Shown one piece after another: positions 3,449 through 30,453 of a DNA stretch of 64,000 nt; position 1 is the stretch's first letter; every line of letters begins with the position of its first letter. Origin of the DNA: Escherichia coli (GTDB taxonomy: Bacteria > Pseudomonadota > Gammaproteobacteria > Enterobacterales > Enterobacteriaceae). Below the pieces are notes generated by a model. That model saw only the letters and a list, made by a program, of their open reading frames with translations. It was not told where the DNA came from and made no database searches. The stretch is taken from NCBI RefSeq assembly GCF_024502345.1, contig NZ_JALDNN010000001.1; one strand, 5' to 3'. Made by a program: the position numbers and the translations under genes.

Positions 3449-5377
<1,929 letters not shown>

Positions 5378-11138: not shown

Positions 11139-11210
11139 ATGTCTGTGCGTTTCCATTTGAGTATCCTGAAAACGGGCTTTTCAGCATGGAACGTACATAT
11201 TAAATAGTAG

Positions 11211-11576
<366 letters not shown>

Positions 11577-14560: not shown

Positions 14561-14986
14561 ATGTATCGCATTGGTGAGCTGGCAAAAATGGCGGAAGTAA
14601 CACCCGACACGATTCGTTATTACGAAAAGCAGCAGATGATGGAGCATGAAGTGCGTACCGAAGGTGGGTTTCGCCTGTATACCGAAAGCGATCTCCAGCG
14701 ATTGAAATTTATCCGCCATGCCAGACAACTAGGTTTCAGTCTGGAGTCGATCCGCGAGTTGCTGTCGATCCGCATCGATCCTGAACACCATACCTGTCAG
14801 GAGTCAAAAGGCATTGTGCAGGAAAGATTGCAGGAAGTCGAAGCACGGATAGCCGAGTTGCAGAGTATGCAGCGTTCCTTGCAACGCCTTAACGATGCCT
14901 GTTGTGGGACTGCTCATAGCAGTGTTTATTGTTCGATTCTTGAAGCTCTTGAACAAGGGGCGAGTGGCGTTAAGAGTGGCTGTTGA
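14561..14986 (+). CDS. zntR: Zn(II)-responsive MerR-family regulator ZntR
   Basis: ORF begins at internal ATG (MYRIGELAKMAEV...), MerR-type HTH N-terminus, C-terminal Cys residues. Confidence 0.9.
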   Translation: MYRIGELAKMAEVTPDTIRYYEKQQMMEHEVRTEGGFRLYTESDLQRLKFIRHARQLGFSLESIRELLSIRIDPEHHTCQESKGIVQERLQEVEARIAELQSMQRSLQRLNDACCGTAHSSVYCSILEALEQGASGVKSGC

Positions 14987-15041
14987 TTTTTTGCACTGGC
15001 AGGATTACACTCGCGCCGTTAAATAACCAACTGGAGTTTTT

Positions 15042-15260
15042 ATGAGCCGATATCAGCATACTAAAGGGCAGATAAAGGATAATGCGATAGAAGCATTACT
15101 ACATGATCCCTTATTCCGACAGCGCGTAGAGAAAAATAAGAAAGGGAAAGGCAGTTACATGCGAAAAGGAAAACATGGCAATCGGGGGAACTGGGAGGCC
15201 AGTGGCAAGAAAGTAAATCACTTTTTTACCACTGGTCTTCTGCTTTCAGGCGCTTGTTAA
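15042..15260 (+). CDS. arfA: Alternative ribosome-rescue factor A
   Basis: ORF track 72 aa [28 protein letters not shown]...; 4-bp convergent overlap with mscL. Confidence 0.9.
15197..15237 (+). promoter_or_regulatory. arfA intragenic stem-loop (known RNase III processing hairpin)
   Basis: 9-bp stem GGCCAGTGG / CCACTGGTC read in sequence inside the arfA 3' coding region. Confidence 0.5.
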
Positions 15261-15667
15261 GAGCGGTTATTCTGCTCTTTCAGCAAATCACGAATTTCTG
15301 TCAGTAATACTTCTTCTTTAGTTGGTGCAGGTGCGGCTGCTGGTTCTTCTTTTTTCCGATTCAGTTTGTTGATTAGCTTAATCGCCATAAAGATGGCAAA
15401 GGCCACAATCAGAAAATCAAAGACGTTTTGAATGAAGACACCGTAATGCATCACAACAGCAGGGATATCCCCCTGCGCATCGCGTAGCGTGACAGCAAAC
15501 TGTTTAAAATCGATCCCGCCAATTAATAAGCCCAGAGGAGGCATGATGATATCGGCAACCAGTGAAGAGACAATCTTCCCGAATGCCGCACCGATAATGA
15601 CACCCACCGCCAAATCCACCACGTTCCCGCGCATCGCAAATTCGCGAAATTCTTTAATAATGCTCAT
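15257..15667 (-). CDS. mscL: Large-conductance mechanosensitive channel
   Basis: ORF track 136 aa [33 protein letters not shown]... Confidence 0.96.
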
Positions 15668-15796
15668 GTTATTCTCCCTATGAAGCCGACAACCATAAGT
15701 CTAACAAATGTTAAGCCATTTTCCTGCCAGGAATGAATTTAATTAATCCTTGATAATCAAAGGGAAATAATAAGGCGTCATTAGACGCCTTATTAA

Positions 15797-17173
15797 TTAC
15801 AAGAAGAAAGGGCTTGGTTGGAAGAGTCTTTCGACGTCGGTAATAAACTTTTTATCTGTGAGGAACATAATTACGTGATCGCCTTGCTCAATGCGCAGAT
15901 TGTCATTGGCAATCATCACGTCGTTTCCACGTACCACCGCTCCAATAATCGTTCCTGGCGGTAGCTTGATTTCGTCAATGACTCTGCCGACAACGCGTGA
16001 GGTGCTTTCATCACCGTGAGCAACGGCTTCAATAGCTTCTGCTACGCCGCGGCGCAATGAGGAAACACCAACAATATCTGCTTTTCGCACATGGCTAAGC
16101 AACGCAGAAATAGTTGCTTGTTGTGGTGAAATCGCAATATCGATCACACTCCCCTGAACCAGATCCACATAAGCGCGACGCTGGATCAATACCATCACCT
16201 TTTTCGCACCCATACGTTTGGCAAGCATGGCGGACATGATATTGGCCTCGTCATCGTTGGTGACGGCAATAAACAGATCAACTTGATCGATATGTTCTTC
16301 GGCCAGCAGTTCTTGATCCGACGCATCACCAAAAAAGACGATCGTATTCTGCAACTTTTCCGCCAGTTCGGCAGCGCGCTGCTGATTACGTTCGATGAGT
16401 TTAACGCTGTAATCTTTTTCCAGACGACGCGCCAGCCCTGCACCGATATTACCGCCACCAACCAGCATGATCCGCTTATACGGTTTTTCCAGTCGCTGTA
16501 ATTCACTCATCACCGCGCGGATATGCTGTGAAGCGGCAATAAAGAACACTTCATCACCAGCTTCAACAATGGTCGAACCTTGCGGACGAATGGGGCGATC
16601 GTGGCGGAAAATTGCTGCCACACGAGTATCGATATGTGGCATATGTTCGCGCATGGTCGAAAGTGCATTACCAATCAGCGGGCCGCCATAATAGGCTTTA
16701 ACCACAGCCAGGCTGACTTTACCCTCAGCGAAGTTTACCACCTGCAATGCGCCGGGATACTCAATCAGTCGGTAAATATTATCGATAACCAACTGCTCTG
16801 GTGCGATCAGATGATCAATCGGTACAGCATCTGAATGAAATAGCTTATCGGCATCGCGCACGTAGTCTGGTGAGCGGATACGAGCGATGCGATTAGGGGT
16901 GTTGAAAAGTGAGTAGGCTACCTGGCAGGCAACCATATTGGTTTCATCTGAACTGGTTACAGCAACCAGCATATCGGCGTCGTCGGCACCTGCCTCCCGC
17001 AATACGCGTGGATGAGAGCCATGCCCCTGCACGACTCGCAGGTCAAATTTATCCTGCAAGGTCCGCAGACGCTCACCGTTGGTATCGACAACAGTGATAT
17101 CGTTGTTCTCGCCAACCAGGTTTTCCGCCAGTGTGCCGCCAACCTGGCCGGCACCCAGAATGATAATTTTCAT
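15797..17173 (-). CDS. trkA: Trk potassium uptake NAD-binding protein TrkA
   Basis: ORF track 458 aa with Rossmann GAGQVGG motif. Confidence 0.95.
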
Positions 17174-24927: not shown

Positions 24928-26469
<1,542 letters not shown>

Positions 26470-26537
26470 CCTTAAAGAAGCGTTCTTTGCAGTGCTCACA
26501 CAGATTGTCTGATGAAAATGAGCAGTAAAACCTCTAC

Positions 26538-26614
<77 letters not shown>

Positions 26615-26656
26615 AATTTGCACGGCAAATTTGAAGAGGTTTTAACTACATGTTAT

Positions 26657-26732
26657 GGGGCTATAGCTCAGCTGGGAGAGCGCCTGCTTTGCACGCAGGA
26701 GGTCTGCGGTTCGATCCCGCATAGCTCCACCA
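26657..26732 (+). tRNA. alaU: tRNA-Ala (TGC anticodon)
   Basis: GGGGCTATAGCTCAGCTGGGAGAGCGCCTGCTTTGCACGCAGGAGG...CTCCACCA, 76 nt. Confidence 0.95.
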
Positions 26733-26915
26733 TCTCTGTAGTGATTAAATAAAAAATACTTCAGAGTGTACCTGAAAAGGTTCACTGCGAAGTTTTGCTC
26801 TTTAAAAATCTGGATCAAGCTGAAAATTGAAACACTGAACAACGAAAGTTGTTCGTGAGTCTCTCAAATTTTCGCAACACGATGATGGATCGCAAGAAAC
26901 ATCTTCGGGTTGTGA

Positions 26916-29818
<2,903 letters not shown>

Positions 29819-29910
29819 ACAACGCCGAAGGTGTTTTGGCGGATGAGAGAAGATTTTCAGCCTGATACAGATTAAATCAGAACGCAGAAGCGGTCTGATA
29901 AAACAGAATT

Positions 29911-30030
29911 TGCCTGGCGGCCTTAGCGCGGTGGTCCCACCTGACCCCATGCCGAACTCAGAAGTGAAACGCCGTAGCGCCGATGGTAGTGTGGGGTCTC
30001 CCCATGCGAGAGTAGGGAACTGCCAGGCAT
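29911..30030 (+). rRNA. rrfD: 5S ribosomal RNA
   Basis: TGCCTGGCGGCCTTAGCGCGGTGG...GGAACTGCCAGGCAT, 120 nt. Confidence 0.96.
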
Positions 30031-30042
30031 CAAATTTAGCGT

Positions 30043-30118
30043 GCTGATATGGCTCAGTTGGTAGAGCGCACCCTTGGTAAGGGTGAGGTCCCCAGTTCGA
30101 CTCTGGGTATCAGCACCA
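30043..30118 (+). tRNA. thrV: tRNA-Thr (GGT anticodon)
   Basis: GCTGATATGGCTCAGTTGGTAGAGCGCACCCTTGGTAAGGGTGAGG...CAGCACCA, 76 nt. Confidence 0.94.
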
Positions 30119-30155
30119 CTTTTTAGGTTAAAGTTCGGCAGATTAGAAAAGAATT

Positions 30156-30275
30156 TGTCTGGCGGCAGTAGCGCGGTGGTCCCACCTGACCCCATGCCGA
30201 ACTCAGAAGTGAAACGCCGTAGCGCCGATGGTAGTGTGGGGTCTCCCCATGCGAGAGTAGGGAACTGCCAGACAT
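30156..30275 (+). rRNA. rrfF: 5S ribosomal RNA, second distal copy
   Basis: TGTCTGGCGGCAGTAGCGCGGTGG...GGAACTGCCAGACAT, 120 nt. Confidence 0.95.
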
Positions 30276-30280
30276 CAAAT

Positions 30281-30324
30281 AAAACATAAGGCTCAGTCGG
30301 AAGACTGGGCCTTATGTTTTATTT
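30281..30324 (+). terminator. rrn terminator T1
   Basis: Hairpin AAAACATAAGGCTCAGTCGGAAGACTGGGCCTTATGTTTT followed by ATTT. Confidence 0.85.
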
Positions 30325-30453
30325 GATGTTTGTCGGTGAACACTCTCCCAACCAGGACAAATCCGCCGGGAACGGATTTGAACGTTGCGAAGCAACGGCC
30401 CGGAGGGTGGCGGGCAGGACGCCCGCCATAAACTGCCAGACATCAAATCAAGC

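Follow-up and report, generated by a model that had tools for sequence, protein, structure and literature searches.

The closest described system to the one studied here is the stem-loop of arfA (yhdL, b4550) in Escherichia coli K-12, with its RNase III site (Garza-Sanchez et al. 2011; Chadani et al. 2011). Morra et al. 2023 (PMC10070815), who summarise earlier mapping, place this stem-loop at nt 146-206 of the gene, and describe two RNase III sites that release a 54-nt RNA, which is split into pieces of about 24 nt (nt 166-189) and about 30 nt (nt 190-219, including the stop codon). The same work documents the overlap of the arfA and mscL transcripts and reports that the arfA 3' fragment lowers mscL mRNA, being antisense to its 3' UTR (PMC10070815). 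Truncated ArfA of 53-55 residues, without the last 17-18, is fully functional (PMC3989591). According to Abo and Chadani, the site was placed in the stem by ligation-mediated RT-PCR, the protein C-termini agree by mass spectrometry, and arfA mRNA rises dramatically upon disruption of rnc or upon synonymous mutations that destabilise the stem; RNase III is not strictly required, as the truncated arfA message is still found in rnc mutants. The in vivo rnc-dependent arfA cuts were re-detected transcriptome-wide, with 2-nt dangling ends; some sites differ between studies (Altuvia 2018).

We analysed this locus in a stretch of 64,000 nucleotides of E. coli DNA (RefSeq assembly GCF_024502345.1, contig NZ_JALDNN010000001.1; hereafter the window), where a hairpin in arfA had been proposed from the sequence letters alone (hereafter the original prediction). 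The identities of arfA and mscL can be regarded as secure given their matches to known families. First, the 72-codon ORF matches the ArfA profile of Pfam (PF03889, E = 9e-26, 89.5 bits against a cut-off of 25.5) over residues 4-45, a span that includes the KGKGSY region and ends upstream of the hairpin. Second, its translation is that of the ArfA chains in the PDB over 72 aa, including 5h5u (ribosome cryo-EM entries). Third, the convergent neighbour matches the MscL profile (PF01741, E = 2e-47). The convergent overlap of the two genes, also part of the original prediction, is borne out: the TAA of arfA lies at 15258-15260 (+) and the stop codon of mscL at 15257-15259 (-), and the 4 nt shared by the two reading frames are likewise shared in the RefSeq annotation of E. 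coli 720632 and of K-12 MG1655. Morra et al. (PMC10070815) put E. coli in the "proximal, non-overlapping" class of arfA-mscL arrangements, in contrast to the 4-nt CDS overlap of the window and of RefSeq K-12, which is probably a difference of annotation or definition. The gene order at around 13.7-17.2 kb of the window, rplQ - yhdN - zntR - arfA (+) / mscL (-) - trkA (-), is identical from rplQ to trkA in the annotated genomes of E. coli 720632 and K-12 MG1655.

A 901-bp query spanning the locus (window 14900-15800) has matches in 5,425 of 5,426 complete E. coli genomes, with RefSeq calling the same genes, and an identical copy of the entire stretch is present in none of the complete E. coli genomes searched (best match 99.7%). 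When arfA is taken alone, it is matched at 100% in E. coli FDAARGOS_943. The 14900-15800 region is plasmid-borne in one E. coli record, occupies two places in at least one genome, and is interrupted in strain ET5 by an IS1A inserted within the matching stretch. Relative to K-12, the arfA of the window has only two substitutions, both synonymous (CDS nt 6 T>C and nt 102 G>A) and both upstream of the hairpin, and there is no difference over nt 146-219 and the 20 nt past the stop codon. Because nt 146-219 have the K-12 sequence, the published K-12 coordinates apply base for base, with the window position being 15041 + arfA CDS nt (Table 1).

Table 1. Features of the arfA-mscL locus, in window coordinates.
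Feature	Position	Strand	Basis
arfA CDS, alternative ribosome-rescue factor A, 72 codons + TAA	15042-15260	+	ORF list, Pfam, PDB, RefSeq
Codons 1-55, left on the non-stop mRNA, encoding active ArfA	15042-15206	+	Cut from PMC10070815, function from PMC3989591
Whole regulatory stem-loop, CDS nt 146-206 of 219	15187-15247	+	RNAfold; limits equal to the published ones
5' arm of the conserved covarying helix, encoding W51-V58	15192-15214	+	RNAalifold, 113 sequences
mscL 3' UTR, +1 to +64, complementary to the arfA hairpin and tail	15193-15256	-	PMC10070815, Fig 2A legend
5' arm of the 9-bp stem, GGCCAGUGG	15197-15205	+	Direct reading, inverted repeat I1
RNase III cut 1, nt 165/166; message end at the Gly55 codon, 5' end of the sRNA	15206/15207	+	Published, transferred by identity
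arfA-derived 54-nt sRNA yrdG (b4846 in K-12), antisense to the mscL 3' UTR	15207-15260	+	K-12 ncRNA feature
Apical loop AAAUC, 5 nt	15215-15219	+	RNAfold
3' arm of the conserved helix, encoding the hydrophobic tail region H60-L67	15220-15242	+	RNAalifold, 113 sequences
3' arm of the 9-bp stem, CCACUGGUC	15229-15237	+	Direct reading, repeat finder
RNase III cut 2, nt 189/190, in the 3' arm	15230/15231	+	PMC10070815; geometry from the predicted fold
CDS overlap TTAA, 4 nt, both stop codons within	15257-15260	both	Same in RefSeq K-12
mscL CDS, 136 codons + stop	15257-15667	-	ORF list, Pfam PF01741, RefSeq

The element had been described as a hairpin with a 9-bp stem in the 3' coding region of arfA. 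The stem and its location are right, since it sits past the functional domain (which ends at codon 45) and before the stop codon, but its size was understated, the 9 bp being the middle of a helix of 26 bp. The arms GGCCAGUGG and CCACUGGUC form eight Watson-Crick pairs and one G.U pair (G15198/U15236); a repeat finder extends them to 15196-15214 and 15220-15238 (19 nt, 84% complementary), and the helix given by RNAfold consists of 4 + 14 + 8 bp separated by the 1x1 mismatches C15191/C15243 and C15206/A15228. The range once assigned to the hairpin, 15197-15260, begins at the start of the short stem and extends too far on the right, because 15260 belongs to the arfA stop codon and the hairpin ends at 15247. 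All of it is outside the mscL CDS and inside the published mscL 3' UTR. The minimum free energy of the fold is -31.3 kcal/mol, with z = -5.97 in a 65-nt context and -4.1 in a 76-nt one. This stability was not reached in any of 200 dinucleotide shuffles, and 0.09% of the 25,576 segments of 65 nt taken from both strands of the window fold equally well. RNase III substrates require about 20 bp or more, and the interrupted duplex exceeds this length. A search of Rfam gave no match at 15187-15260, either at E <= 1 or at the gathering thresholds, and the database appears to have no model for the arfA hairpin.

The cut positions were taken from Morra 2023 and from the K-12 ncRNA feature by sequence identity. 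When converted to window coordinates, the published limits of the stem-loop are exactly those of the RNAfold helix, and this is the outcome of the check that the original prediction had proposed, i.e., a comparison of the hairpin with the published processing sites: the coordinates coincide, both for the element (nt 146-206) and for the cuts (after nt 165 and 189). On the predicted fold, the transferred cuts lie at the upper end of the 9-bp stem, the first beside the C.A mismatch (at C15206), the second a single pair inside the 3' arm, with a stagger of two pairs plus the C.A mismatch. Because this stagger differs from the 2-nt ends of Altuvia and sites vary between studies, the transferred positions should be taken as accurate to about 1-2 nt. 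Codons 53-55, the last ones of the functional truncated proteins, end at 15200-15206. That RNase III cuts turn arfA into a non-stop message, as had been suggested, is published for a K-12 sequence identical over the element (PMC10070815), and reviews state that ArfA accumulates when rescue by tmRNA is limiting (PMC3989591, PMC3989581, PMC8012679). Two aspects had been omitted from the original prediction: transcription can also end prematurely at the hairpin independently of RNase III, and the 3' fragment is reported to act on mscL as an antisense RNA.

The hairpin is conserved far beyond E. coli. We scanned one genome per species with the coding pattern FRQRVExxxKGKGSY, which is upstream of the hairpin and independent of it, and obtained at least 120 loci from Enterobacterales, Pasteurellaceae and one Shewanella, with a complete arfA ORF in 117 of the loci listed. 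Among these matches, all 117 complete orthologs have a long hairpin, which usually lies some 30-90 nt downstream of the KGKGSY codons. The 107 distinct hairpins among the matches listed have a median of 23 pairs, and 90 of them have at least 20. Two loci that the automatic caller had scored as exceptions (L031 and L075) were rejected as such, because their helices are long and carry a branched insertion at the apex, which the caller had mis-scored. To the 113 distinct 91-nt arfA tails from the matches listed, aligned with MAFFT, RNAalifold fitted a consensus of 21 pairs, 17 of which show compensatory changes, in which both sides differ and the pair is kept. In this alignment 97.0% of the cells are paired, against 40-61% when the 3' partners are slid by 1-3 columns, and 315 cells are changed on both sides, against 55-93 in the slid controls; the observed values were reached by none of 500 shuffles on any of the five measures. 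The replacement of entire arms can be followed between clades, from GGCCAGUGG/CCACUGGCC in Enterobacteriaceae to GGCCAAUGAU/AUCAUUGGCC in Xenorhabdus and AGCCCGAUGAU/AUCAUCGGGU in Haemophilus. The hairpin had been called conserved biology at the outset, and its presence in all complete orthologs listed, with compensation in most pairs, supports this description. The cross-species data independently reproduce a strong covariation for an element that is apparently without an Rfam model.

This conservation bears on whether the arms could be a chance inverted repeat within a coding sequence, devoid of function. Such a reading has in its favour that a stem of 9 bp with a loop of 23 nt is frequent by chance in 64 kb, and the short stem is indeed unremarkable when considered alone. 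What is remarkable is the full helix (z = -6) and its covariation across two bacterial orders, to which the published genetics can be added; a chance origin, to which we assign a negligible probability, is excluded.

The two arms seem to be constrained in different ways. The 5' arm is coding sequence for the conserved WEASGK segment, and we infer that the 3' arm would be constrained by complementarity, which may explain why the hydrophobic tails are variable and the ends of the ORFs range widely. Among the loci L003-L122 the end of the arfA ORF is highly variable, with some tails reading through up to 175 nt into the convergent mscL and some ORFs stopping within the 3' arm of the hairpin or before they reach it (L048, L041, L061, and L107). 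Such variable ends would be consistent with a tail that is rarely translated. In Prodigiosinella confusarubida (L100, NZ_CP025085.1, about 4246-4336) the 3' arm is tandemly duplicated, with UUUACCACUGGCCUUCUG present twice, so that the single 5' arm could pair in either of two ways. A 383-bp contig labelled Arthrobacter sp. 18067 (L062, NZ_CACSJJ010000125.1) encodes an ArfA that is nearly the one of Raoultella terrigena (L060), from which it is two tail residues apart; its occurrence in an actinobacterial assembly is almost certainly a contamination.

Since the hairpin of arfA is complementary to the mscL 3' UTR, one may ask which strand owns the structure. It could be a terminator or stabiliser hairpin of the mscL 3' UTR on the minus strand, merely overlapped by arfA. 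The complement does fold (-21.6 kcal/mol, z = -4.1), and the mscL 3' UTR (+1 to +63) is reported as an RNase III substrate in vitro from which a small RNA has been detected (PMC10070815). Yet in the window the fold of the arfA sense strand is stronger by 10 kcal/mol, and this strand is also the more stable one in 87 of the 107 distinct ortholog hairpins listed, by a mean of 6.2 kcal/mol. The hairpins have about 3.5 G.U pairs per ortholog, several consensus pairs being predominantly G.U, and the fold of the mscL strand is weaker because these conserved pairs turn into C.A mismatches there. The distance from the hairpin to the KGKGSY codons is roughly constant in most orthologs, while the spacing between the ends of the arfA and mscL CDSs varies from -175 to +125 nt among the loci listed; the window shares its spacing of -4 with Franconibacter pulveris (L085) and with the loci of Escherichia and Citrobacter. 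Among the matches listed, mscL is convergent and downstream of arfA in 86 of 118 loci, and the hairpin is retained in the 32 listed loci for which no mscL was found in the surrounding DNA stretch (Pasteurellaceae, Xenorhabdus, and others). A U-tract is absent after the hairpin on the minus strand (CCCCCGAUUGCC). An ownership by mscL is therefore very improbable: the strand asymmetry, the variable spacing, and the presence at loci lacking a detected mscL argue that the hairpin belongs to arfA.

In the RefSeq annotation of K-12 the ncRNA at NC_000913.3 3438431-3438484 ("arfA-derived small regulatory RNA") corresponds to arfA nt 166-219. By sequence comparison, the yrdG described by Morra et al. 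2023 and the corresponding segment of the window are the same base for base, and the convergent arrangement with mscL is shared, with no difference detected. One could speculate that a yrdG-like fragment might act on other convergent or trans targets where mscL was not found, or that duplicated arms like those of L100 might tune the frequency of stop-codon removal, but we regard these extensions as quite improbable.

A second alternative concerns the way in which the non-stop message is made. If the arfA ORF contained an intrinsic terminator, the truncated mRNA might arise mainly without RNase III, cleavage being secondary. Some orthologs look the part: in Pasteurellaceae the base of the stem is G+C-rich and stands between an A-run and a U-run, in the shape of a terminator (GAAAAGCCCGAU...AUCGGGUUUUUC). 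The 3' arm of the window hairpin continues into CUUCUGCUUUC, but this U-tract past the stem is interrupted by C and G, a scan for consensus terminators did not call the arfA hairpin, and a G+C-rich stem directly followed by a U-tract, as in Rho-independent terminators, was not found at 15187-15247. With its length of about 26 bp and its internal mismatches, the helix looks like a typical RNase III substrate and exceeds the usual size of a terminator stem. Some premature termination at the arfA hairpin has been reported in the literature, in rnc mutants, while rnc or stem mutations strongly raise arfA mRNA and the C-termini of ArfA fit the RNase III site. A mainly terminator-made message is thus unlikely in E. 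coli, where termination is a real but secondary contributor that complements the RNase III route. The scan did make other calls, including a weak 5-bp stem at 15251-15265, which we judged to be unrelated to the arfA hairpin. In the same area, an 8-bp hairpin at 15259-15279 (+), AAGAGCGG UUAUU CUGCUCUU, is located within the last codons of mscL (KEQNNRS), its start being at the stop codon of arfA, and a similar stem is found in many Enterobacteriaceae tails. Full-length arfA transcripts may end here, or the stem may simply be conserved coding sequence of mscL.

The structure and its statistical strength, the strand specificity, the conservation and covariation, and the match in coordinates are established here. 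On this basis we are highly confident that the hairpin at 15187-15247 is a cis-regulatory element of E. coli arfA and that it acts, as a whole, through the following steps, for which cleavage, tmRNA tagging, and the effect on mscL would carry over from the literature on the identical K-12 element: 1) the arfA mRNA would fold into an interrupted duplex of about 26 bp; 2) RNase III would cleave both arms, at about 15206/15207 and 15230/15231 according to the literature; 3) the 5' product would stop at codon 55 without a stop codon, and translating ribosomes would stall at its 3' end, as published; 4) when tmRNA is active, ArfA would be SsrA-tagged and degraded, as described; 5) with tmRNA absent or saturated, ArfA(1-55) would be released without a tag, recruit RF2, and rescue stalled ribosomes, also following the literature; 6) two published back-ups would act against full-length ArfA, namely premature transcription termination at the hairpin and the unstable hydrophobic tail encoded by the 3' arm; and 7) the 54-nt product (yrdG), complementary to the mscL 3' UTR, is reported to reduce mscL mRNA and may do so here. 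Nothing in the sequence of the window contradicts this explanation. The back-up rescue factor is in this way self-limiting, its own mRNA being a non-stop substrate of the primary rescue system, and the antisense fragment would couple translation stress to the expression of MscL.

Elsewhere in the window there are other structured RNAs. An rRNA operon spans 24928-30330 (16S, two tRNAs, 23S, 5S, a tRNA, and a second 5S), a layout that we take to be that of rrnD in K-12. The most stable 65-nt hairpin of the window on both strands (30266-30330, -43.4 / -37.7 kcal/mol) comes after this operon and is presumably its terminator. Rfam identifies the Alpha_RBS (RF00140, 102.7 bits) at 11141-11252 (+), i.e., the S4-binding leader of the alpha operon, upstream of rpsD-rpoA-rplQ.

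Our study places the element of the window within already-known biology, with nothing new and no departure from K-12 over its length. The arfA stem-loop and RNase III site described in K-12 have the same sequence at nt 146-219, the same helix limits, and the same gene order, and the recognition of this known regulatory RNA structure from raw sequence provides a positive control. The hairpins described in proteobacterial arfA genes (Schaub et al. 2012) share with it the position after KGKGSY and the long helix. Across the Enterobacterales the hairpins have a conserved GGGAGGCCAGUGG / CCACUGGCCUUCU core, common to the window, whereas those of Pasteurellaceae and Xenorhabdus have other arm sequences in which pairing is kept (GAAAAGCCCGAU..., GGGAGGCCAAUGAUAAU...), some of them being more terminator-like. 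The arfA of N. gonorrhoeae is reported to use termination. The canonical substrates of RNase III, such as the stems of rRNA precursors and the rnc leader, resemble the arfA hairpin in having a duplex of about two turns with internal mismatches, and in arfA, too, the published cuts on the two arms would be staggered. The arfA site differs from them in lying inside a CDS and in its purpose, which is the removal of a stop codon and not RNA maturation or destabilisation.
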